The notes under the pieces are model-generated. The model did no database searches. It worked only from the letters and a program-made list of their open reading frames with translations, and was not told where the DNA came from. Positions 50,888-62,519 of a stretch of DNA of 64,000 nucleotides are shown in pieces. The DNA comes from Candidatus Latescibacterota bacterium (GTDB lineage: Bacteria; Latescibacterota; UBA2968; UBA8231): assembly GCA_965243025.1 (NCBI GenBank), contig CBDETY010000003.1, forward strand, positions 3,872,001 to 3,936,000. Reading direction: 5' to 3'. Each line of letters starts with the position of its first letter. Position 1 is the first letter of the stretch. The translations under genes and the position numbers were made by a program.

Positions 50888-51675
50888 CAGCCGGCCCCGG
50901 CCCGGAGGAGGCGGATGCGGGCGAACATCGCGGTGGCCCCGGCGGCGAACCCGAGCGCGCGCTCGACGCCGCTCCAGAAACCGAAGCTCCATCCCGGCAT
51001 GAGCTGGCGCAGCGACAGCCCCCCTGACAGCAGGTAGCGGAACGGCATGTACGGCTCGACCCGGTCGAGCCGCCACTCGGGGAAGCCGCTCTCGAAATGG
51101 GCCCTGTCTCTCGCGAAGACGATCCAGGGGAGGGCGGAGTTGGCTCCCGTCATCGGGCCTGTGCCCGGAGTTTCCCACTCCCGGGCATGCACGTCGATCT
51201 CTTCGTGGTGGAACCTGCCGTAGATGAACCGCGACCAGGGGGTGCACCAGGGCTCGATCATGACTACCGCCCCCCCGGGCCTGACGCAGCGGGCCGCCTC
51301 GGCGAGGAAGCGGCGCGGTTCCGGCAGGTGGTGGAAGACGTTGGTCATGGCGATCCCCCGCAGTACCCCGCCGGCGAACGGCAGGCGCTGCCCGTCGAGC
51401 ACGAGGTCGAGGCTGTCTGAAAAAACCAGGTCGGAGCTGAAGCAGCCGCGGGTGCGGTCCTCCAGCAGTCCGCCGGCGCCGGCACCCAGTTCGATGACGG
51501 CGCCTGGCCCCTCGGGAATCGAGGCGCCCAGCCACTCCCCCCACTCGGCGTATACGCGCCGCAGGAAGGGCTTGGCCTCGATCAGCTTGCGGTGCGCCCC
51601 GGCGCGGCCGGGAGCGTCGAGGTCGAGGCCCCGCACCGCGGGTTCGGCGAGCAGCCGGCGCAGGGCGGAGATCAC
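50887..51675 (-). CDS. Class I SAM-dependent methyltransferase-like protein
   Basis: [35 protein letters not shown]; coupled at both ends. Confidence 0.82.
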
Positions 51676-53126
51676 GCGAACTTGAGCTTGCGCATGGCGA
51701 TGGCCGTCATCTTCAGCAGCAGCCAGCCGTGGCGGAAGCGCTGGATCTGGGTGCTGCCGTAGCGCCTCTCGCGGTAGCGCACCGGGACCTCGACGATGCG
51801 CAGCTGCAGCCTGGCGGCGCCGAAGAGGAGGTCGAAGTCTCCGAAGGGATCGAGGTCGCCGAAGTAGGCGCGCCCCGCGGCGATGCGGGCGTAGTCCCTG
51901 GCGAAAAGGACCTTGGTGCCGCACAGGGTATCGCGGATGCGCTGCTCCAGCAGGTAGGTGAAGGCGACGCTGAAGAGCTTGTTGCCGAGAAGGTTGAGCA
52001 GCCGCATCGCCTGGCGCTCCATCGGGTAGACGAGGCGGGTGCCGTTGATCAGCTCCCCCCGGCCCTCGACCAGGGCGTCGTAGAACCTCGGCAGGTCCTC
52101 CGGGGCCACGGTGAGGTCGCCGTCGAGGATCATCAGCACCTCCCCGCCGGCGCGGGCGAAGCCGCGGCGGACCGCGTCCCCCTTGCCGCTGCCGTTATCC
52201 TGGCGGACGAGCTTGATGTCGCGCTGCGGGTACGCGGCGATGACGCGCTCGATCTCCTCGGCGGTGCCGTCCCGGGAGCCACCCTCGACGAAGATCAGCT
52301 CGGTGCGGGAGCCGATGTCGGGGGTGCGCAGGACCGCCTGCTCGACGTTCCCCTTCTCGTTGCGGCAGGGAATGATTACTGAGCAGGCCGGCGGCTCGGG
52401 GCGCGCCTCCGGGGCCGCGGGGCGGGCGACGACGAACTGCGACAGGCAGAGCCTGCGGATGCCGGGAAGCCTGGCGAGGAAGCGGTTGACGAAGGGGGAC
52501 AGCAGCGGCACCCGCCGCGGCGCCAGGAAGCGGTAACCGGAGTTGACGGTCTCGAAACCGGTGAGGTAGAGCAGGTTCCCGATGTCCCCGGCCGAGAGCC
52601 AGTTCTGCAGCGGCACCTTCATCTTCAACCGCAGGGCCTCCCCGAGCTTGAGCAGCGGCTCCCACAGGTAGTTGAAGCTGGTGACGATGACGCGGGTATG
52701 GGGCTCCGACACCTTGTGCAGCTGCGCGAAGGCGCCCTGGACGTCGAACAGGTGGCCGACGACGTCGGAGAGGATTACGTAGTCGAAGGTCTCGTCGACC
52801 TCGAGGTTCTCGGCGTCGCCGGCGCGGAACTCGAGGCCGGGGTGCCGTGCCGCCGCCAGCTCGACCATCTTCGGACTGATATCGATGCCGAGCCCGCGGC
52901 CGGGAGAGACCGCGGCGAGGAGGTCGCCGGTGCCGCATCCGATCTCGAGCACCCTCGACCCGGGCGGGATCACGAAGCGGCAGAGGTCGGCGACCTGCCG
53001 GTAGTAGTAGCGGTTGCGGCGCAGCCAGCGCTCGCGCTCAGGGGCCAGGGCGTCGAAGAGCGGGGCCATGCTCTCCGGGCGCAGCGCCGGGCCGCGGCGG
53101 CTCGTCCAGGGCAGCCAGCTCGTCAC
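51672..53126 (-). CDS. Fusion of methyltransferase-like domain and GT2 (polyprenol-phosphate glycosyltransferase-like)
   Basis: N-terminal VLEIGCGTG; C-terminal IIPCRNE, GSRDGT, GKGDAVR.G, ILDGDL, DTLCGTK. Confidence 0.88.
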   Translation of the reverse strand: MTSWLPWTSRRGPALRPESMAPLFDALAPERERWLRRNRYYYRQVADLCRFVIPPGSRVLEIGCGTGDLLAAVSPGRGLGIDISPKMVELAAARHPGLEFRAGDAENLEVDETFDYVILSDVVGHLFDVQGAFAQLHKVSEPHTRVIVTSFNYLWEPLLKLGEALRLKMKVPLQNWLSAGDIGNLLYLTGFETVNSGYRFLAPRRVPLLSPFVNRFLARLPGIRRLCLSQFVVARPAAPEARPEPPACSVIIPCRNEKGNVEQAVLRTPDIGSRTELIFVEGGSRDGTAEEIERVIAAYPQRDIKLVRQDNGSGKGDAVRRGFARAGGEVLMILDGDLTVAPEDLPRFYDALVEGRGELINGTRLVYPMERQAMRLLNLLGNKLFSVAFTYLLEQRIRDTLCGTKVLFARDYARIAAGRAYFGDLDPFGDFDLLFGAARLQLRIVEVPVRYRERRYGSTQIQRFRHGWLLLKMTAIAMRKLKFA

Positions 53127-53472: not shown

Positions 53473-55710
53473 ATGACGCGGACACGACGATCTCCCCTCT
53501 GGATGCCGCTTCTCTGCTGCCTCGCCGCGGCTCCGGGGTGCTCGCCGGACCCGGACGGGGATACAGCGGCGGAAGGCACCCGCGCCATGGCCGAGCGCCT
53601 CGAAGCGATCGCCGCCGGCGTCGACCCGGAGGCCAACCCCTACGCCAACGGGGTCCGGGTCGAGCACTTCCGCCGGCGGCTGGACAGCCTGCGGACCTCC
53701 GCAGCCGCAGAGGAGCCCCCCCCTGAGCCGATCCTGCGCGCCCGTTTCACCCTCGCCAACGAACTGCTCCTCGACGGACAGTCCGCGGAGGCGGCCCGGG
53801 AGTTCGAAGCCCTGCTGCAGGACGCCGAGAAGCCAGGCAACCGACACAACATCCGCATCCTCCTCGGTCTGACCTGGCTGCGCCTCGGGGAGCAGGAGAA
53901 CTGCGTGGTGCGGCACACCATAGACTCCTGTCTTATGCCCGTAGGCGGCTCGGGGGTGCACCTCATCGAGCGCGGCTCGCGCGGGGCCGTGCGCGAGTTC
54001 GGGAAGGTGCTGGAGCGCAACCCCAGGGACCTGTCCGCCCGCTGGCTGCTCAACATCGCCTACATGACCCTCGGGGAGCACCCCGGAAAGGTGCCCCCCC
54101 GGCACCTGATCCCGGAAGAGGCCTTCGCGTCGGACTACGACATCGGGCAGTTCCGCGACGTCGCCCCCGCCCTCGGCCTCGACCTGGTGGGCCTGGCGGG
54201 GGGCGGCATCATGGAGGACTTCGACGGGGACGGCCACCTCGACGTCTTCGCCACCTCCTGGGGGCTGCGCGACCAGGTGCGTTACTTCCGCAACGGGGGC
54301 GACGGCTCCTTCTCGGACCTGACCGAAGCGGCCGGACTGCTCGGCATCGTCGGGGGCCTCAACGCCCTGCAGACCGACTACGACAACGACGGCTGGGCCG
54401 ACCTGCTGGTGCTGCGCGGGGCCTGGCTGAACCGCCCTCCGGCTACCGACGGGGGGCGCCATCCCAACTCCCTGCTGCGCAACCTGGACGGGGTGGAGTT
54501 CGCCGACGTCACCGCCGAAGCCGGGCTGCTGAGCTTCCACCCGACGCAGACCGCGGCCTGGGGGGACTGCGACAACGACGGCTGGCTCGACCTCTACATC
54601 GGCAACGAGAGCCTGGGAACAGACAGGCATCCCAACGAGCTCTACCTCAACGCCCGGGACGGCGCCTTCCGGAACGCGGCGGCGGCCAGCGGAGTCGCCC
54701 TGGAGGGGTACGTCAAAGGAGTGGTCTGGGGGGACTACGACAACGACGGGCGGCTCGACCTCTACGTGTCGCGCCTGCTCGAGGAGGAGCCGAACATCCT
54801 GTTCCGCAACCGCGCCGGAGACTCCGGGCCTCCCCGCTTCGACGACGTCACCGAGGCCGCCGGCGTCCCGGGTCCGGCCTACAGCTTCCCCGCCTGGTTC
54901 TGGGACTACGACAACGACGGCTGGCTCGACCTGTTCGTCTCGGGGTACCGGGCCCGCGCTTCCGAGGTGGCCGCCGACTACCTCGGGATTCCCCACTACG
55001 GGGAGCTTCCCCGCCTTTACCGCAACAACCGCGACGGCAGCTTTGCCGACCTCACCCGGGAGGCCCGCCTAGACAAGCCCCTGCTGACCATGGGCAGCAA
55101 CTTCGGCGACCTCGACAACGACGGCTGGCTCGACTGCTACATCGGCACCGGGTCGCCGGGGCTGACGTCGCTGATGCCGAACCGGATGTTCCGCAATGCC
55201 GGGGGCCGCTTCTTCCAGGACGTGACCACGTCTGGGGGATTCGGCCACATACAGAAGGGGCACGGGGTCGCCTTCGGGGACGCCGACCACGACGGCGACC
55301 AGGACGTGTACGCGACCATGGGGGGCGCCTACGCCGGCGACGTGTACCAGAACATCCTGTTCGAGAACCCCGGGCACGGGAACCGCTGGCTCAAGCTGAA
55401 GCTCGTCGGGGTGCGCTCCAACCGGGCGGGGATCGGGGCGCGCATCAAGGTTACGGTCGACACCGGGGAGGGGGAGCGTCAGATCCACGCCACCGTCGGC
55501 AGCGGCGGCAGCTTCGGAGCCTCGAGCTTCCGCAAGGAGATCGGCCTCGGGCAGGCGAGCGCCATCCGGTCGCTGGAGGTCTACTGGCCGGCCAGCGGCG
55601 AGCGCCAGCTGTTCGAAGAGGTTGAGATGGACCGGGTGCTGCAAATCACCGAGGGAGACCCGGCCCCGCAAGTCCTGCACTACGAGCCCTTCCGCCTGGG
55701 AGCCGGCTGA
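53473..55710 (+). CDS. CRTAC1-like FG-GAP + ASPIC/UnbV protein with N-terminal TPR-like region (probable lipoprotein)
   Basis: Signal peptide with APGC; LRLGEQENC..., D.DNDGWLDL repeats, SNRAGIGARI, EIGLG, VYWP. Confidence 0.88.
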   Translation: MTRTRRSPLWMPLLCCLAAAPGCSPDPDGDTAAEGTRAMAERLEAIAAGVDPEANPYANGVRVEHFRRRLDSLRTSAAAEEPPPEPILRARFTLANELLLDGQSAEAAREFEALLQDAEKPGNRHNIRILLGLTWLRLGEQENCVVRHTIDSCLMPVGGSGVHLIERGSRGAVREFGKVLERNPRDLSARWLLNIAYMTLGEHPGKVPPRHLIPEEAFASDYDIGQFRDVAPALGLDLVGLAGGGIMEDFDGDGHLDVFATSWGLRDQVRYFRNGGDGSFSDLTEAAGLLGIVGGLNALQTDYDNDGWADLLVLRGAWLNRPPATDGGRHPNSLLRNLDGVEFADVTAEAGLLSFHPTQTAAWGDCDNDGWLDLYIGNESLGTDRHPNELYLNARDGAFRNAAAASGVALEGYVKGVVWGDYDNDGRLDLYVSRLLEEEPNILFRNRAGDSGPPRFDDVTEAAGVPGPAYSFPAWFWDYDNDGWLDLFVSGYRARASEVAADYLGIPHYGELPRLYRNNRDGSFADLTREARLDKPLLTMGSNFGDLDNDGWLDCYIGTGSPGLTSLMPNRMFRNAGGRFFQDVTTSGGFGHIQKGHGVAFGDADHDGDQDVYATMGGAYAGDVYQNILFENPGHGNRWLKLKLVGVRSNRAGIGARIKVTVDTGEGERQIHATVGSGGSFGASSFRKEIGLGQASAIRSLEVYWPASGERQLFEEVEMDRVLQITEGDPAPQVLHYEPFRLGAG

Positions 55711-55852: not shown

Positions 55853-56860
55853 CTAATCCATCTCCAGCGAGGCCTTGATCCGCCCCCAGGAAACCGACTC
55901 GACCGCGCTGTTTTGCGGCCCGGCGCCGGCCGGCAACAGCAGTCCGTCGAGAAAGTAATCGGCGGCAAAACTTTCTATGTCCCAGAAAACTTCACGATCG
56001 GATGCCATGACCTGGACTTCCGGTGCCAACTGGGCAGTAGAATTCCTCCCCTTGTCCGCATCATACACGCCAATCGCGAAGCCGATGATCTTGCCTGCGC
56101 TCAGATCGCTTGGGGCAGACCCGTCGGGACTGGTCAGGTCTTCCCTGTGGTCGAACGGCGTGATGTACAGCTCGATTGTCCAGATGACGGGCGCTTCTCC
56201 GGCTACGCCGCCGCCGGCCTCCGCGTAGGGGGGCAGGGTCATCCAGGAAAAGGCCCCCGTCATATATCTGGACTGCCACTCATCCAAAGTCGGTCCACTG
56301 GGAGTTTGGGAAATGGCCTCATATGACTGAGCCTCCCCGGTAATCTCCAGGAATCTCCCCGGTCTGACAGGAACTGCCAGGTCACGCCCGGGACCGCCGC
56401 TGTGATCTCCGTCGATTCCGAGGACAATACCGTCGTTATATCCACCAAGGAATACCAAATTATCCTTACCAGACTCTATCCAATTGTCCACATCGTAGGT
56501 GTGGGTATTTACGTATCTGTCATCGGTGGCCACGAAGGCTACATAGAGGCGAGCCGGCTCATCGTGCCAGGCCAGCCAGATCCGGAAGTCCAAGTCGGCC
56601 GGATCATGCGTGGATTCCCTGAACTCGTCCATGAAATCCACCAAGCTCAGGGCAGGCTCACCGATCAGATCGAACCACTCCTCCACCGAGCCGTCGTGGA
56701 GCTGAATCTCTGAAAGCATCTCGTCGGTCAACTCCGCGAACGGGAAGACCCGACTGCCGACGTGGGCTTCTGCCTGGTCAGCCAGGCCGGCGGACAGGGC
56801 CGACCCGACGAGCAGGCCGAGGGCCATGCGCCAGTGATTCCTGCTGAAAAAAAAGGACAT
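55853..56860 (-). CDS. Secreted DOMON/CBM9-like protein with C-terminal SAVESVSWGRIKAS tag
   Basis: Signal peptide ending AEA; DG...EW, WLAW....LYV, DGDHSGG, W..E..I, IIGF.I.V.D.D. Confidence 0.7.
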   Translation of the reverse strand: MSFFFSRNHWRMALGLLVGSALSAGLADQAEAHVGSRVFPFAELTDEMLSEIQLHDGSVEEWFDLIGEPALSLVDFMDEFRESTHDPADLDFRIWLAWHDEPARLYVAFVATDDRYVNTHTYDVDNWIESGKDNLVFLGGYNDGIVLGIDGDHSGGPGRDLAVPVRPGRFLEITGEAQSYEAISQTPSGPTLDEWQSRYMTGAFSWMTLPPYAEAGGGVAGEAPVIWTIELYITPFDHREDLTSPDGSAPSDLSAGKIIGFAIGVYDADKGRNSTAQLAPEVQVMASDREVFWDIESFAADYFLDGLLLPAGAGPQNSAVESVSWGRIKASLEMD

Positions 56861-56884
56861 CTGTTTTCCTTCCTCCTCTTCAGG

Positions 56885-56934
56885 AAAAACAAGGGCGAGG
56901 ACCCATCCCCCTGAAGGGGACGGAGCCCTCGTCC
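56885..56934 (-). terminator. Rho-independent terminator between the peptide gene and the WGRIK gene
   Basis: Minus-strand RNA CGAGGGC(U)CCGUCCCC-UUCAG-GGGGAUGGGUCCUCG followed by UUGUUUUU; G-U pairs favour the minus strand; a second hairpin lies at 56941-56962. Confidence 0.7.
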
Positions 56935-56969
56935 TGGAATTCCGCGTCAGCGAAAACGCGGAAGGATGC

Positions 56970-57225
56970 TCAGTTCCTGCACTCGCAGTACCAAGCCCCT
57001 GGGCCGGGGAGGTCGCGAACCCGGTAATCGTCGTGCCAAAGCCGGGAGCAGTTATATGCGCACGTTCCGTCCGCCTCGCTGTTCGTGTAGGCGTACATGG
57101 TGTGGCCGTGGTGCCAAGGAGGTACTCGATTCGGCCTCCACCCAGGACACGCCTCCGGTGGTGAGCAGGAACCCCCGCCAGAACGCCAGGACGGCCTTCA
57201 TGCTCTGCTTCAACTGATTTCCCAT
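56970..57225 (-). pseudogene. Cryptic secreted Cys-containing mini-protein (signal peptide + CxxxC...CxC), frameshifted or miscalled
   Basis: RBS AAAGGGGG and ATG at 57225 give MGNQLKQSMKAVLAFWRGFLLTTGGVSWVEA; the +1 frame continues PWHHGHTMYAYTNSEADGTCAYNCSRLWHDDYRVRDLPGPGAWYCECRN* (stop 56970-56972). Confidence 0.6.
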
Positions 57226-57285
57226 TGCTGCCCCCTTTGTTTTCGGGGTCGCGCCTGTTCGCTACCCCCGTTCACCAAAAAGAGA

Positions 57286-57302
57286 TGCAAATGGCATGCC
57301 TG
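57286..57302 (-). promoter_or_regulatory. sigma54 -24/-12 promoter
   Basis: CAGGCATGCCATTTGCA has exact GG-N10-GC spacing, about 60 bp upstream of ATG 57225. Confidence 0.7.
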
Positions 57303-57342
57303 TACCTGGCCGGCGGCTCCATCAGTGGTGTCCGTGATGACG

Positions 57343-57355
57343 TAACCTGTTGTTT
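57343..57355 (-). promoter_or_regulatory. IHF-binding site
   Basis: AAACAACAGGTTA, one mismatch to WATCARNNNNTTR, with adjacent A/T tracts at 57360-57390; lies between UAS and -24/-12. Confidence 0.55.
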
Positions 57356-57434
57356 TCCTGTTTTTTGAACACCTGTTTTTTTTTATTTCGACGACAAAAA
57401 GCTCGCCCTCGCCGCCACCGGCTTCCCGGTACCG

Positions 57435-57490
57435 TCGTATTTAATACGATTTTGTCGTATTTAATACGATCCGGCCGTATTTAATACGAT
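57435..57490. repeat. Three tandem palindromic operators (T)CGTATT-T-AATACGA at 20-bp period; probable bEBP enhancer (UAS)
   Basis: CGTATTTAATACGAT starts at 57436, 57456 and 57476; an extra half site CGTATT lies at 57494. Confidence 0.85.
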
Positions 57491-57615
57491 TTCCGTATTG
57501 CCGCGGCCCGGCTGAGGACTGCTTGCTTCTGCAAAATCAGCTTCCGTCCCGAATTTGCGTGTCCCCGGATGGATTGATATGATTTTACGAATACAGTTTT
57601 CATACTTGGGTAAAC

Positions 57616-57831
57616 ATGCGAATTTCTGAACGAGGACAAATCACCATTCCCAAGCGACTGAGAGATCGCTTCGGAATGAATCCCGACGTCGAAGTCGAGA
57701 TCACGCCGACAGAGCACGGCCTGCTCATTCAAAAACGGACCGCAGCGAGGCACCCTGTCGAGCGCGTGTACGCCATCCTGGGAAGCGGCGCAAGCACCGA
57801 CGATTACATCGAGGAAATCCGTGGGAGATGA
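57616..57831 (+). CDS. AbrB/MazE/SpoVT family antitoxin
   Basis: MRISERGQITIPKRLRDRFG swapped-hairpin motif; ATGA coupling to the PIN gene. Confidence 0.9.
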   Translation: MRISERGQITIPKRLRDRFGMNPDVEVEITPTEHGLLIQKRTAARHPVERVYAILGSGASTDDYIEEIRGR

Positions 57832-58223
57832 TCACCGCGGTCGATACGAGTGTCCTGTTGGACGTGTTTCTCCCCGACGAGCGTCACGGCCCCCGGTCGA
57901 AGGAATTGCTGCGGGACGCCTATGACAGGGGGGCCATTTTCATCTGTGAGGTGGTCTATGCGGAACTCGTTCCCGCGTTCGATGACCGGGCAAAGCTCGA
58001 CGGAGCGCTGCGGGAGATCAGCGCTGCGATTTCACCCATCGATACCGATATTGCTTTCGAAGCCGGGCATCGCTGGTCTCGCTACCGGCAGGCCGGCGGG
58101 TCCAGGAATCGGATAATCACGGATTTTCTGATCGGCGCCCACGCGGTTGTAAAAGCCGAAACTTTTCTCACACGGGACCGCGGCTTCTACTCGACCTACT
58201 TTCCGGAATTGCATAGAGGGTGA
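57828..58223 (+). CDS. vapC: PIN-domain VapC toxin
   Basis: VDTSVL, VYAEL, DFLIGAHA, LTRD acidic tetrad. Confidence 0.9.
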   Translation: MITAVDTSVLLDVFLPDERHGPRSKELLRDAYDRGAIFICEVVYAELVPAFDDRAKLDGALREISAAISPIDTDIAFEAGHRWSRYRQAGGSRNRIITDFLIGAHAVVKAETFLTRDRGFYSTYFPELHRG

Positions 58224-58355
58224 GGTTCCCACCCCACCCTCTGTGGGCGTCTCCACCGCAGGGCCATCCAGGCGCCAGCAGGCCACCGCGACAAACGCGC
58301 CGCTCCTCAGTCAGCTTCCAACCCCCCGAGACCTTGGGGAGCCGTCGGCAGACAA

Positions 58356-59321
58356 TCACTTGGAGTCCGGCACACCGGATTCCCCGCTACGGCCTATCTG
58401 CGCCTTGACCGCCCCCCAGGCCGCGGCTCGAATCGCGCTGGCCGCCTCCGCGGAAATCCAGGCCGGGTAGATCGCGTCCGTCGAGGTCTGGGTCAGGTTG
58501 ACGGGGTTCGAGCCATCGGCATCCATCACGTAGATGTCGTAGTCGCCGTCCCGGTTCGAGGCGAAGGCGATCCGGGTCCCGTCCGGGGACCAGGCGGGCC
58601 AGTAGTCGGCGTACGCCTGGTTGCGGGTGATATCGACCGGGTTCGAGCCGTCCGCATTCATCGTGAAGATGTCTATGTCCCCCCCGTTGCGGCGGGAGGT
58701 GAAGGCGATAACGGAACCGTCGGGGGACCAGGCGGGACGGGAGTCCGCGGCGGGATCGTTGGTCAGGTTGACGGGGTTCGAGCCGTCCGGCCCAATCGTG
58801 TAGACCTCGAGATTGCCGTCTCGCAGGGAGTGGAAGGCGATGCGGTTGCCGTCGGGAGACCAGGCGGGATAGGCGTCTTCCTCGGGGTGGCGGGTGACGT
58901 TCAACAGGTTCGTGCCCCCGGCTTCGATCGTGAAGATGTTGAGGGGGCCGTCGAAGTCGGAGGTGACCGCGATGCGGCTGCCGTCGGGAGACCAGGATGC
59001 CAGTCCGAAGCGATGGTGGGTGTCGGTGACGTTGACCAGGTTGGAGCCGTCGACCGACATGACCCAGAGGTTCTGGAAGCCGCTGCGGTTGGAAGCAAAC
59101 ACGAACTTCGTGCCGTCGGCAGTCACCGCCGGCTCCCAGTCCCGGGCCGGGTTGTTGGTGAGGTTGACGGGGTTGGATCCGTCCTCCTCCATCACGTAGA
59201 TCTCGACGTTGCCGTCGTCGCGGTCGGTGGCGAAGGCGATCTTGCAGTCGCAGGCGGCGCCGCTCCGTTGCGCTGTCAGAGCTGCCGCCAGCGCGGCGAT
59301 CAGCAGGGGGGATCTGCCCAT
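58356..59321 (-). CDS. Secreted TolB-like (PD40) beta-propeller with C-terminal SAIRAAAWGAVKAQ tag
   Basis: Signal peptide; about 6 repeats of PAWSPDG.RIAF.S.RDG..IY.M..DGSNP.NLT. Confidence 0.88.
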   Translation of the reverse strand: MGRSPLLIAALAAALTAQRSGAACDCKIAFATDRDDGNVEIYVMEEDGSNPVNLTNNPARDWEPAVTADGTKFVFASNRSGFQNLWVMSVDGSNLVNVTDTHHRFGLASWSPDGSRIAVTSDFDGPLNIFTIEAGGTNLLNVTRHPEEDAYPAWSPDGNRIAFHSLRDGNLEVYTIGPDGSNPVNLTNDPAADSRPAWSPDGSVIAFTSRRNGGDIDIFTMNADGSNPVDITRNQAYADYWPAWSPDGTRIAFASNRDGDYDIYVMDADGSNPVNLTQTSTDAIYPAWISAEAASAIRAAAWGAVKAQIGRSGESGVPDSK

Positions 59322-59376
59322 GGCGAGCTCCTGTGAATGACCGGCGCCCGCGGAAGGCCGCGGGAGCCGGCCGCGT

Positions 59377-60501
59377 TCAGACGCGGTTGTCCTCGATGTA
59401 GTCCCAGTCCAGCTCGAAGCCAAGCCCCGGTTTCTGCGAGACGATGACGTTCCCCTCGCCGTCGAAGGGATCGCAGATCTCCTTCATGTACGGAGGCGGC
59501 ACCTCGTAGGCCTCGTCGTGGCCGGGGGCGAACAGCCCGCGCTCGAAGTACTCGATGGTGTCGACGTTCGTCGAGGCGTAGATGTGCAGGTTGCCCCAGC
59601 CGCCGCCGTGGATCGTCGCCCGCATACCGAACGACTCGTACAGGGCCACCGATTTCCTGCAGCCGGTGATGCCGTTGAAGTTGACCTCGGTGCGCCCCAT
59701 GTCCGCCGCCTTCCTGACGATCCACTCGGTGCGGCTGTACGGCAGGTTGCCGAGCTGCTCGGGGGCGCAGACCGGCACCTCGAGGTTTTCGGTGAGGCGG
59801 ATGTAGGGTTCGATGTTGTTCTCCGGCATCGGGCTCTCGAACCAGAAGAAGTCGAGCCCGGCGATCTCCCTGCCGACGTAGAGCGCCTGCTCGTAGTTGT
59901 AGATGCCGGCCTGGTCGAGCATCAGGACGATGTCGCCGCCGACGCGCTCCCGCACCGCCTCGCAGACCTCGACGTCGTGCCGGGGAAAGGCGGGGTTGCG
60001 GGGGGCCGGCTCCATCCTGACCGGGTCGTACCACATGTAGGCGTGAATCTTGTAGGCGGTGTACCCCTTTCTCACGCACTCCTCGGCGTGGTCGGCGAAA
60101 ACCTCCGGGGAGCCCATGTTCGGGTAGGAGCTGGCATAGCACTTCAGCCTGTCGCGGTAGCCGCCGAGCAGCTTGTGCACCGGCTGCTCGAGGCAGCGGC
60201 CGGCGAAGTCCCACAGCAGCATGTCGAGCAGCATGTTGCCGCCGCTCAGCTGCCAGAGCTGCTCGCGGTCCATCGGGTCGCGGCCGATGGCGAGGGCCTC
60301 GATCCAGGGGGGCAGGCCGCCGCCGCGTGGAAACCAGTAGCCGCTGACCCCGGTGTCGGTCTCCAGCTCGAACAGCGTCGTCGCGGTCTCTTCGGGCTCG
60401 GTCCGCAGCAGCTCCAGCGGGTAGATCGAGTACCCGTACTTCCCCTGGTAGCGGCGCGACATGGTTTTGAAGCGGTGCTGCTTCACAGCGGTGATCTTCA
60501 T
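59377..60501 (-). CDS. Mandelate racemase/muconate lactonizing enzyme family (enolase superfamily)
   Basis: DMLLWD..G...QPVHKLLGG, YKIH, LMLD, WFESP, APE, KPGLG; RBS ggaggag. Confidence 0.9.
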   Translation of the reverse strand: MKITAVKQHRFKTMSRRYQGKYGYSIYPLELLRTEPEETATTLFELETDTGVSGYWFPRGGGLPPWIEALAIGRDPMDREQLWQLSGGNMLLDMLLWDFAGRCLEQPVHKLLGGYRDRLKCYASSYPNMGSPEVFADHAEECVRKGYTAYKIHAYMWYDPVRMEPAPRNPAFPRHDVEVCEAVRERVGGDIVLMLDQAGIYNYEQALYVGREIAGLDFFWFESPMPENNIEPYIRLTENLEVPVCAPEQLGNLPYSRTEWIVRKAADMGRTEVNFNGITGCRKSVALYESFGMRATIHGGGWGNLHIYASTNVDTIEYFERGLFAPGHDEAYEVPPPYMKEICDPFDGEGNVIVSQKPGLGFELDWDYIEDNRV

Positions 60502-60515
60502 TTTTCTCCTCCTCC

Positions 60516-62519
60516 TCACCAGTAGTGCACGCGGTGGCCGTCGGCCGGGAACCAGATGGCGTCGATGACTCCCGAGAGGACCACCCCGGCGACGTAGCCG
60601 ACCCCGAGCCCGTAGAAGAAAGGCTTGCCCGCCTGGTAGGCGCCGCCGCCGCCGTAGCGCAGCAGGGTCAGCTTGACGATCCAGACCAGCAGCAGGCTGA
60701 ACCAGTAGTGCACGAGGCCGGGGGCGTACTGGAAGGCGAGCCCGACCGGGTGCAGGGCGAACCAGTGAAAGCGGCCCCGAAGGTAGGCGAGTCCCGCCGC
60801 TTCGAGAAACCCCGTCAGCCAGACCCCCCATTTGCCGAGGTCGAAGGCCCGCGGGTGGTTGAGCAGCGTCGCGATCTGCGGGTAGACGTTGAAGGCGTAG
60901 GGCAGGTGCACGGCCCCGCCCTGGTCGTAGGCGACGGTGATGCTGCAGAGGGAGGCGACCAGGCAGCCGACGGGGAAGGCGACGAGCACCACGGCGCAGA
61001 CGCGGCCGGGCTGGAAGCGCAGGGAGAATATCCGCAGGTGATGGGGCAGGGCCGGCCAGGCCGGCAGGCGTATGTTGCCGAAGAAGGCCTGGCTGACGAA
61101 CAGCTTGAAGGCGACGACGTTCTTCGCCGACAGGTTGGCCGAGCCGACGAGGTCGGTGATGAACAGCCCCCCCTTGGCGTTGGCCCAGGTCGGCATCAGG
61201 TAGGGGAACCCGGTGGCGGCGATCAGCTTGATGGTGACGAAGAACGACACCGTCATCAGCGCGAAGGTCGCCGCCGCCAGCGGCAGGCTCGCCCCCAGGC
61301 TGACCCCGAAGGAGATGACGTACACGGCCGAGACCGCCATGCCCGCGGCGGCGATCCGGTAGATGCGGACGTCGGCGGGGTCCCCCTCGCCGCGGGCGAT
61401 GCTCCCCCAGACCTCGCGCAGGTGGCGCCGCGCCAGCCACAGCGACCAGAGGGCGATGCAGACGATGGCGCCGTAGCTCTCCATGTCGAGGATGTCGCCG
61501 CTGCCGAGCTGCTGGCCCGAGGAGCCGACGCTGAACCCGAGCTGGTCCATGGCCCCGGTCTTGGCGACGGCGAGGAAATAGAAGAGCACGAGGCTTCCGA
61601 GAATGTCGAGGGGGCAGAGGTAGACCAGGGCGAGGACCAGGGGCAGCACGCGCAGCACCGGGGACGGCCAGGGGCGCGGCAGGGTGATCTGGAAGCGCTC
61701 GAGGTAGAACTCCGCCTGCGGCAGCCCCGGGGTGAACCAGGTGCCCATGTTGTAGAACAGGGGCAGGAAGACGACGCCGAAGCCGATCCAGAAGAGGCGC
61801 GAGTGGAACAGGTCCGGCAGCCGCCGCGGCCCGTCGAAGCCGCGGGTCAGCTCCAGGGGCATCTGCGCCAGCGGGAAGGTCAGCCTCTCCGCTTCGATCC
61901 ACTGGCGCCGGAACAGGATCACCAGGCAGAGGCCGAAGACGACCATCGCCAGCGACGCTGAGAACCAGCGGGCGATGGCGCCGGCCCAGGCGTCCCAGGG
62001 CAGGGGCATCCCTTCCGGCAGGCCGAGCCAGAAGGTGTGGATGACCCGCTCCGTCGGCTCCGGGAAGGCGTTCCACGGCATCCAGGGGAGGATCAGGGTG
62101 TCCCACTGGTTCTCCGGGGTGGCCATGAAGAACGGGGCTCCCATGACGGCGACCCAGTAGTCGCTCCACCCCCACATCGGCAGGGCGCCGACGATCCACG
62201 TCATCGAGAAGATGGTCAGCAGCTCTCCCCGGGTCAGCGCCGCGCGCGGCCGGATCGATTTCAGCAGGACGTTGAGGAAGAGCCAGAGCACGAAGGGGAT
62301 GACGGCCACCATCGGGTACTGGGAGAGCACGAAGGTGCTCGAGGCGAGGTTGATGCCGACGACGACGATCAGGCAGTAGAACCAGCCGGCGACGGTCAGG
62401 GCGCCGACGAACACGCCGCGCCAGGTGATCCTCAGCCCCTCGTCACCGTCCTCCCCTGCCGCCCCCGAATGCCGCTGACCAGGGCCTTTTCTCCTGCTGT
62501 CCGTCGACACTGATTCCAT
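60516..62519 (-). CDS. Polytopic membrane protein, DUF6785/DUF6784-like (putative peptide transporter)
   Basis: GELL.IF, ATPENQW, QW...ERL.FPL...P, W..LHPVG, K...LRYGG...Y...KPFF.GL. Confidence 0.72.
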   Translation of the reverse strand: MESVSTDSRRKGPGQRHSGAAGEDGDEGLRITWRGVFVGALTVAGWFYCLIVVVGINLASSTFVLSQYPMVAVIPFVLWLFLNVLLKSIRPRAALTRGELLTIFSMTWIVGALPMWGWSDYWVAVMGAPFFMATPENQWDTLILPWMPWNAFPEPTERVIHTFWLGLPEGMPLPWDAWAGAIARWFSASLAMVVFGLCLVILFRRQWIEAERLTFPLAQMPLELTRGFDGPRRLPDLFHSRLFWIGFGVVFLPLFYNMGTWFTPGLPQAEFYLERFQITLPRPWPSPVLRVLPLVLALVYLCPLDILGSLVLFYFLAVAKTGAMDQLGFSVGSSGQQLGSGDILDMESYGAIVCIALWSLWLARRHLREVWGSIARGEGDPADVRIYRIAAAGMAVSAVYVISFGVSLGASLPLAAATFALMTVSFFVTIKLIAATGFPYLMPTWANAKGGLFITDLVGSANLSAKNVVAFKLFVSQAFFGNIRLPAWPALPHHLRIFSLRFQPGRVCAVVLVAFPVGCLVASLCSITVAYDQGGAVHLPYAFNVYPQIATLLNHPRAFDLGKWGVWLTGFLEAAGLAYLRGRFHWFALHPVGLAFQYAPGLVHYWFSLLLVWIVKLTLLRYGGGGAYQAGKPFFYGLGVGYVAGVVLSGVIDAIWFPADGHRVHYW

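Follow-up and report, generated by a model that had tools for sequence, protein, structure and literature searches.

Two exported proteins and their common ending

The window examined here is a stretch of 64,000 nucleotides (G000:C3:3872001-3936000) from the 6.8-Mb, 65% GC genome of a bacterium recorded as Candidatus Latescibacterota, hereafter the source genome. Two genes within it, both on the reverse strand, encode exported proteins with unrelated bodies and a common ending, [ST]-A-[VI]-x3-[SA]-W-G-x-[IV]-K, which we call the tag. A preliminary description of the window had noticed this ending and proposed it as an undescribed protein-sorting signal. The two genes and the segments of them that matter here are as follows (ORF, open reading frame; AF2, AlphaFold2; aa, amino acids).

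55853..56860, (-): gene for a CBM9/DOMON-like exported protein; ORF of 335 aa ending ...PQNSAVESVSWGRIKASLEMD before the stop
55856..55909, (-): tag of the CBM9-like protein, residues 318-335, SAVESVSWGRIKASLEMD; from the sequence, the homologue alignment and the AF2 model
58356..59321, (-): gene for an exported PD40 beta-propeller with TolB-like repeats; 321 aa ending ...AEAASAIRAAAWGAVKAQIGRSGESGVPDSK before the stop
58404..58439, (-): tag core of the PD40 protein, residues 295-306, SAIRAAAWGAVK; from a register alignment with 19 other tags
58359..58403, (-): tail after the PD40 tag core, 15 residues and unusually long, AQIGRSGESGVPDSK; from the sequence

The ORF of the PD40 protein spans 58356-59423(-), and its likely start is the ATG that gives 321 aa (58356-59321). 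The protein has five PD40 repeats (Pfam, 1.1e-50) and scores 262 bits against the TolB model TIGR02800, under the equivalog cut-off of 343; it is a PD40 propeller, and its identity as TolB is unsupported by the score. The CBM9-like protein matched no Pfam family at E<=1 and likewise no NCBIfam model. Its AF2 model, made from an alignment of 57 homologues, has a pLDDT of 83 and a pTM of 0.82, and a Foldseek search with it found the CBM9 module 1i82_A (E 2.7e-7, TM-score 0.71 on the target) as well as CBM9 7nwo; further look-alikes are NxrC (7b04), BACUNI_03838 and the ethylbenzene dehydrogenase gamma subunit (2ivf_C). Since the best solved look-alikes are CBM9 modules, the term "DOMON-like" used in the preliminary description is right at the level of the fold. 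Indeed, tagged proteins of this family in two other genomes match PF06452 (CBM9_1) directly (L030, 2.6e-9; L092, 7.5e-11), and L030 clusters with the remaining tagged CBM9-like proteins of small genomes. The family has 895 homologues at E<=1e-5, none of them with a name; 114 of the best 120 database homologues end in the tag, and these have neither a name nor a Pfam domain. Both window proteins begin with signal-peptide-like N termini, as had been claimed, judged by a hydrophobicity heuristic. The signal peptide of the CBM9-like protein covers approximately residues 1-32 and ends ...A↓H, the arrow marking the predicted cleavage point.

A side observation concerns this cleavage point. In the CBM9-like family A32 and H33 are nearly invariant (window 56762-56770, residues ~31-33; ~100 paralogues), and subfamilies read A↓HEPPG, A↓HDPPEF or A↓HKPEG. 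From these sequences, the mature protein may begin at His1. By analogy with lytic polysaccharide monooxygenases or CopC, His1 together with the invariant H153 in D-G-D-H-S-G-G could form a candidate histidine-brace-type copper site.

The tag itself has a regular anatomy. A flexible linker rich in Pro and Gly leads to a fixed box, [PG]-T-[AS]-V-[EQ]-x-x-[ST], followed by W-[GA]-x-[IVL]-K and a short tail, which is x-[LM]-[FY]-[KR]-COOH in most lineages and A-S-L-[E/S]-x(0-2) in the family of the source bacterium. Both window tags align in register with 18 others around the core [ST]-W-[GA]-x-[IVL]-K, with T-[AS]-V-[EQ] before it at a fixed distance, and in all alignments the spacing within T-x-V-x3-[ST]-W-G-x-[IV]-K is constant. 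The PD40 core is a degenerate version of T-A-V-E-x-x-S-W-G-x-I-K, with S, I, R and A in place of T, V, E and S; elsewhere in its PD40 cluster the tags are more typical. The Lys is separated from the stop by 6 residues in the CBM9-like tag and by 15 in the PD40 tag, and neither ASLEMD nor AQIGRSGESGVPDSK has the canonical x-[LM]-[FY]-[KR]-COOH ending. In the alignment of 57 homologues, W325, R327, K329 and L332 of the CBM9-like tag are invariant. The AF2 model gives a pLDDT below 50 over residues 317-335, with only a short low-confidence helix, and on this basis the tag lies outside the CBM9-like fold.

The preliminary description had also stated that the peptide lacks a transmembrane (TM) helix, which is borne out: most source-genome copies have 3-6 mostly polar residues after the core. 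Its suggestion of a short amphipathic helix, in contrast, found no support. The helical hydrophobic moment of the tag is ordinary (0.33-0.39, against 0.30 for random 10-mers), whereas the strand-type moment is high (0.50-0.60 against 0.28, about twofold); such periodicity belongs to an amphipathic strand and not to a helix. Pfam and NCBIfam gave no match at E<=1 to the C-terminal end of either window protein, so that these two copies of the tag are not assigned to a known domain of these collections. The result listings of literature searches on the motif, and on T9SS (type IX secretion system) and sorting in these phyla, held nothing relevant to it.

The tag in the source genome and in other lineages

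Searching the six-frame translation of the source genome for WG.[IVLM]K returned 146 matches, 107 of which stand fewer than 10 residues before a stop, with the consensus [PG]-T-A-V-E-x-x-[ST]-W-G-R-I-K-A-S-L-x(0-3)-stop. A tag profile added some 27 copies with W-A ("SWARIKASL"), so the Gly is not invariant, while the Trp and the Lys are; per-position counts come from 101 tags plus these ~27 variants. One match, L015 (a Peripla_BP_6 protein with FWGPMKK 18 residues before its end), was judged a chance match and dropped. In all, 128 of 5327 crudely called genes (2.4%) are tagged, with tails mostly of 4-6 residues (range 3-9) and up to 23. Conserved tag positions draw on every synonymous codon (TCN and AGY for Ser, four codons for Gly, six for Arg), and selection therefore acts on the peptide and not on a DNA repeat. 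Moreover, a signal-peptide-like N terminus was found in 101 of the 128 tagged genes, compared with 164 of 600 size-matched controls put through the identical procedure; several of the tagged genes that fail the heuristic are fragments. The tag is thus enriched at the ends of secreted proteins, a point on which the preliminary description had staked its proposal.

Once the tag is cut off, the 128 proteins sort into 18 body clusters. The largest comprises 100 CBM9/DOMON-like paralogues, and the other 28 proteins are spread over 17 clusters. They include six PD40 propellers, the window protein among them, and bodies with Cache, fasciclin, Temptin_C, LTD (lamin-tail), Kelch and FGE-sulfatase domains, together with several without a Pfam match. 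In other genomes the tagged bodies are NHL, TED+Big_1, beta-helix, CHRD, BNR, LTXXQ and X25. Because unrelated body clusters carry it, the tag is portable. The claim that two unrelated proteins, a PD40 propeller and a CBM9/DOMON-like sandwich, share a C-terminal tag is confirmed, and genome-wide the sharing goes far beyond chance. PD40 homologues in tag-free phyla mostly end 0-6 residues past the propeller, and those of two Poribacteria metagenome-assembled genomes (MAGs) have a tag-like end.

In other families of the source phylum the tag reads P-T-A-V-E-P-[ST]-[ST]-W-G-x-[IV]-K-x-[LM]-[FY]-[KR]-stop, nearly always with exactly 4 residues after the Lys, and the canonical ...KALF[KR]-stop form is found there. 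The pattern TAVExx[ST]WGx[IVM]K, with the residues downstream left free, occurs in at least 67 stretches of public-genome DNA; 68 of the 70 matches listed sit 2-11 residues before a stop, and among these listed matches the MAG titles are Gemmatimonadota/-etes, Latescibacterota, Eisenbacteria, Handelsmanbacteria and one Planctomycetota, plus unnamed bacteria. When a 31-position profile of the tag was run against a library of 1.84 billion cluster representatives, 505 matches were obtained at E<=0.001. Among the best 150 of these, 146 lie within 12 residues of the C terminus, 105 have a tail of exactly 4 residues and 92 end in YR or FR. Phylum labels here are record titles, and for this lineage the Latescibacterota and Gemmatimonadota titles conflict and are not to be taken at face value; by title, the nearest relatives of the PorV-like protein discussed below are Latescibacterota (72% and 69% identity) and Gemmatimonadaceae (67%).

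Within a sample of the source phylum, 82 of 151 genomes have matches to the tag alignment, and these divide sharply by family. The tag occurs in 63 of 63 genomes of the source bacterium's own family (f1) and in none of the 30, 19, 2 and 5 genomes of families f2, f3, f4 and f8, respectively; f10 has it in 1 of 13, and f5, f6, f7, f9 and f11-f14 are tag-positive. Since kin are not independent, we make no statistical claim on this pattern. Its sharpness (63/63 against 0/30 and 0/19) nevertheless makes the hunt for a reader, that is, a protein that recognizes the tag, a well-posed problem for comparative genomics.

Two homologous lipoproteins (P0122 and P0129) carry three or four tags in tandem at the C terminus (...TWGRIKALYRK...TWSTIKGVYS...TWGRIKALIA...TWGGIKAQVL). 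Such tandem copies fit a binding motif better than an end signal that is cleaved.

The numerical weight of one family raises the question of whether the tag serves its carriers in common at all: it could be a conserved tail of the CBM9-like family, occasionally recombined onto other genes. With 100 of the 128 tagged genes in that family, and with family and tag both missing from the same 5 tag-free genomes, the idea is a natural one. However, at least 17 other body clusters in the source genome, and many elsewhere, keep the core under peptide-level selection; in Eisenbacteria the tag stands on NHL and other proteins at loci without the CBM9 operon described below; and the 505 library representatives are diverse. 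We regard this explanation as already largely refuted and very improbable.

The position of the tag bears on another reading, in which a periplasmic PDZ-type protease or regulator recognizes it as a degron or a C-terminal processing signal and not for localization. PDZ domains read strand-like C-terminal peptides at a fixed distance to the carboxylate, and in most lineages the tag is just such a peptide at the extreme C terminus. Yet the variable tails of the source family and the internal tandem copies argue against reading of the carboxylate, a degron on 2.4% of genes, many in expanded nutrient-capture families, is hard to explain, and the tag is patchy where PDZ proteases are ubiquitous. 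This, too, seems to us highly unlikely.

Neighbouring genes and the type IX secretion system

The source genome encodes a T9SS: SprA scores 470 bits, above the cut-off, a PorV-like gene adjoins a C25 peptidase gene, and there are 99 matches to TIGR04183, or 172 genes with a T9SS C-terminal domain (CTD) by our own profile. None of the 128 tagged genes is among these 172. The tagged proteins are shorter, with a median length of 308 aa compared with 745 aa for CTD proteins. The two endings are exchanged between close paralogues. Tagged g05118 and g00743 share 65% identity over 387 aa; g00743 ends in an extra domain and a CTD, and the two part exactly at ...GSGFY-x-x-P, where the tag begins in g05118; g03530 and g01749 show the same swap of tag and CTD, and a PD40 homologue in the tag-positive genome G155 ends in a CTD. 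SprA was found in all 87 tag-positive genomes examined.

Part of the tag also occurs in CTD proteins. In 13 of the 172 in the source genome a TAVE box lies 19-22 residues before PNPFN, in a disordered linker, compared with 0.27% of background windows (g00149, g00150, g00694, g01039, g01040, g01715, g01902, g02524, g03110, g04294, g04956, g05097 and g05108). As a general feature of CTD linkers the box was rejected: it holds in the source genome only, and at other loci it precedes the CTD in 0 of 117 cluster-A and 0 of 15 PNPF-type CTD proteins. Where present, it may mark past exchanges of tag and CTD at the junction.

These relations could mean that the T9SS itself, through PorV, SprA or the periplasmic ring, reads the tag, so that the tagged protein would leave through SprA and then be processed or attached by PorU near the TAVE box. 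Mutual exclusion of the two endings, swaps at one junction and the constant company of SprA speak for such a mechanism, and tagged genes are also co-operonic with CTD cargo, as at the Eisenbacteria locus L075, where three tagged genes flank two C25-CTD peptidases. The TAVE box of the 13 CTD proteins lies in a disordered linker as it does in the tag, and both endings weakly resemble K-x-hydrophobic-hydrophobic-[KR/Y]-COOH. To our knowledge, however, the known T9SS signals are folded domains of ~70-100 aa, and no CTD model matches the tag. Moreover, 69 genomes have SprA and no tag, the box is missing before CTDs at the other loci, tag-positive G003 and G009 have no extra C25 paralogue, and the source family's variant lacks a basic C terminus. 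We consider it unlikely that the T9SS reads the tag. The mere presence of a T9SS was rejected as an explanation, as SprA occurs in 150 of the 151 sampled genomes and does not discriminate.

The genes beside the tagged ones offered candidates for a reader. In the window, two lie upstream of the PD40 gene, both assigned by Pfam.

59377-60501, (-): gene for an MR_MLE_C enolase-superfamily enzyme
60516-62510, (-): gene for a DUF6785/DUF6784 multi-pass membrane protein

Neither is a tag-specific partner; they are context. Near tags lie 10 of the 46 DUF6785 paralogues of the source genome, and such genes adjoin tagged CBM9-like genes in a distant family also, but as a tag-specific receptor DUF6785/DUF6784 is rejected by its presence in the tag-free families f2 (24/24), f3 (6/6) and f8 (5/5). 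The MR_MLE and FG-GAP/UnbV neighbours are merely large paralogue families, with 9 of 60 and 12 of 40 members near tags, and were dropped as partners. An extra C25 (PorU-like) peptidase does not follow the tag either: three tag-free genomes have 1, 1 and 2 such genes, tag-positive G003 and G009 have one each, and the source genome has 3. Two further families, family B and lipoprotein C, share operons with tagged CBM9-like genes and were found in tag-positive G003 and G009 but not in tag-free G007, G057 and G010. As a general reader, family B is excluded, since it did not turn up in G155 or in three Eisenbacteria genomes that have the tag, the Eisenbacteria check covering family B. Both families belong to the CBM9 system as its partners and are not general readers.

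The invariant Lys suggests a different kind of reader, a transpeptidase (L,D-transpeptidase, sortase-like enzyme or transglutaminase) for which the Lys would be the nucleophile or acceptor in linkage to peptidoglycan, lipopolysaccharide (LPS) or protein. An L,D-transpeptidase acts on Braun lipoprotein and a sortase-like enzyme on the pilin-motif Lys, and E. coli Lpp ends ...K-Y-R-K-COOH, which the canonical ...K-x-x-Y-R-COOH recalls. The Lys is invariant in every alignment, and the fixed residues around it resemble an enzyme recognition site. The tandem internal copies are neutral on this point. No enzyme tracks the tag, however, C25 being the one family checked, and the equal invariance of the Trp goes unexplained. 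Covalent attachment is in our view quite improbable.

The CBM9 operon has a conserved order: a tagged CBM9-like gene, lipoprotein C, three CTD proteins (FlgD_ig/CHU_C, F5/8 type C) and family B. It was seen in MAGs titled Gemmatimonadota, Latescibacterota and Handelsmanbacteria (L056, L058, L066, L095, L108, L099 and others), often with a SurA-like peptidyl-prolyl isomerase (PPIase) and a DUF6785/DUF6784 membrane protein nearby, and a cluster of CTD-bearing proteins is present at 47 of 66 loci of other genomes. It looks like a polysaccharide-utilization-type envelope system without SusC and SusD. At Eisenbacteria loci, genes for tagged proteins, NHL and unnamed ones, are interspersed with genes for CTD proteins (FG-GAP, multihaem, trypsin).

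Of the operon's products, lipoprotein C has no Pfam match. Family B (~930 aa; e.g., L089:988-3732(-)) starts with a signal peptide and matches nothing in Pfam, in NCBIfam or, by sequence, in the PDB; it contains an invariant, calcium-site-like acidic block, VDDNDDQD...PG-x-DENND...PDYEEPF...NNN...END...PDYPY, and its end, ...F-x-T-x-Y-A-G-L, resembles an outer-membrane strand. To judge from its sequence, it may be a new family of large outer-membrane proteins. The source genome has 39 paralogues of family B, 17 of the PPIase and 7 of lipoprotein C. Other large families there are the 46 DUF6785/DUF6784, 60 MR_MLE, 40 FG-GAP/UnbV (CRTAC1-like), 172 T9SS-CTD and ~100 CBM9-like proteins; window positions listed with such families are 53503-55710, 59377-60501 and 60516-62510.

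Elsewhere in the window, a PIN-domain gene at 57828-58223 (+) (Pfam, 3.7e-13) overlaps by 4 bases an upstream 51-codon ORF (57676-57831); together (57676-58223, +) they probably make up a toxin-antitoxin pair of the VapBC type that has been inserted between the tagged genes. The pair sits in the window's stretch of lowest GC (0.616, 56001-60000). An ORF at 51672-53126 (-) fuses a class I methyltransferase (residues ~40-195) to a family 2 glycosyltransferase (~246-380) and lies among PMT_2, methyltransferase and epimerase genes.

A proposed docking peptide and its known counterparts

The fixed spacing, the strand-type moment, the tandem copies and the disorder in the AF2 model together fit a linear peptide that a protein receptor binds, probably by strand addition. 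They agree less well with a generic membrane-seeking helix or with a sortase signal that depends on a TM segment, and as the tag has no TM helix, no intramembrane sortase would be involved. We propose that the tag is a modular C-terminal address or docking tag of ~17 residues on Sec-exported, mostly single-domain ligand-binding proteins, a proposal whose chances of being right and wrong we judge to be about evenly balanced. After Sec export and removal of the signal peptide, one common envelope receptor would bind the unstructured tail in an extended, strand-like form, and the tagged protein would thereby be kept at the outer envelope or on the cell surface, next to T9SS cargo. The tag would then be a short alternative to the ~80-residue T9SS CTD found in its place in close paralogues. 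An undescribed sorting or anchoring signal, as the preliminary description had it, is consistent with all tests run, its function being what we infer from them.

Docking without a protein receptor was also considered, with the Trp, the Lys and the aromatic tail lodged in the leaflet interface or on anionic LPS. The invariant Trp and Lys and the aromatic and basic end would suit such a lipid- or LPS-binding peptide, as would the lack of a TM helix, disorder until bound and the failure of the candidates tested to yield a tag-specific protein partner. Tandem copies would raise avidity, and for CBM9-like proteins whose genes adjoin DUF6785 genes, a tether close to inner-membrane transporters would be sensible. 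In contrast, the helical moment is ordinary (28-38% of random 10-mers equal it), and the acidic tail of the source family is unfavourable for anionic surfaces. Such binding also leaves unexplained the invariance of the Trp and Lys, the fixed 8-residue spacing to T-A-V-E and the 4-residue tail in 105 of 150 matches. We therefore find it distinctly unlikely.

Several observations weigh against a surface-docking tag read by one receptor. The number of tagged genes in the source genome is largely the expansion of a single paralogue family, and the CBM9-like family was not found in the 5 tag-free genomes, so that the distribution of the tag inside the phylum partly follows the CBM9 system. Since SprA is nearly universal in the sample and present in the 69 tag-free genomes too, its co-occurrence with the tag carries little weight, and the TAVE box that links tag and CTD proteins in the source genome precedes no CTD at the other loci. 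Association along the chromosome is mild: CTD genes lie within 4 genes on either side of 28 of 92 tag loci in the source genome, compared with 17.8 +/- 3.7 for shifted positions (16 of 2000 shifts), and adjacency within 1 or 2 genes is not significant there. The source family's variant has no basic C terminus and tails as long as 23 residues, so recognition of the free C terminus cannot be universal. LTXXQ (Spy/CpxP-like) proteins are normally periplasmic, and a tagged one suits periplasmic retention as well as surface display. Finally, all carriers are uncultured bacteria, for which localization and binding of the tagged proteins are predictions.

More broadly, we put forward, tentatively and with somewhat more doubt than belief, a class of envelope sorting signals with neither a TM helix nor a domain: a peptide of 12-17 residues captured as an added beta-strand by an outer-envelope receptor, and serving a number of uncultured phyla as an inexpensive substitute for the CTD in the display of small ligand-binding modules. 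If so, ~2.4% of the genes of the source genome would use a sorting peptide captured as a beta-strand. By record title, the carriers are Gemmatimonadota, Latescibacterota, Eisenbacteria, Handelsmanbacteria and Poribacteria MAGs. At least 505 sequence clusters and the ~100-member CBM9-like family, presently without a name, would gain an annotation, the tag marking them as envelope-targeted binding proteins beside T9SS cargo in polysaccharide-utilization-like operons.

New envelope machines, among them sortases, exosortases, rhombosortase and the T9SS, have repeatedly been discovered by way of C-terminal sorting signals, and the architecture of the tag, with neither TM helix nor folded domain, is unlike those signals. 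LPXTG, PEP-CTERM, GlyGly-CTERM, PGF-CTERM and MYXO-CTERM are likewise short C-terminal motifs on unrelated exported proteins in a patchy set of lineages. In sortase and exosortase signals, however, the motif is followed by a TM segment and basic residues, both of which the tag lacks, and no NCBIfam sorting-signal model matches the window tags. The anchors of PBP5 and PBP6 and the membrane-targeting sequence of MinD are also short, terminal, free of a TM helix and rich in aromatic and basic residues; they are amphipathic helices with loose sequence needs, whereas the tag combines ordinary helical amphipathicity with strict residue identity and spacing. The T9SS type A CTD (TIGR04183/PF18962 Por_Secre_tail, PF13860 FlgD_ig-type) resembles the tag in being C-terminal, modular and borne by proteins with signal peptides in the same genomes. 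It differs in being a folded sandwich of ~80 residues on larger carriers, while the tag is ~17 residues, disordered in AF2 and without a CTD-model match; the two are mutually exclusive per protein, are exchanged between close paralogues at the same junction, and part company in many T9SS-positive genomes, where the tag is missing.

The closest counterpart of the window tags is the canonical [ST]WGxIKx[LM][YF][RK]-stop tag of other lineages. Common to both are the T-A-V-E-x-x-[ST]-W-G-x-[IV]-K core, the strict C-terminal place and signal-peptide carriers of many folds. The source family differs in its K-A-S-L-[E/S]-x(0-2) tail, which is acidic and not basic, and the source genome in its ~27 W-A copies, in tails of 3-9 and up to 23 residues, and in drawing 100 of 128 carriers from one CBM9-like family. 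Because the core is shared and the tail is basic elsewhere, the WGRIKASLEMD of the window is a derived, acidic-tailed variant of a widespread tag. This variant, together with the sharp phyletic pattern, the swaps of tag and CTD between paralogues, the conserved operon and the four excluded reader candidates, is what is new here.

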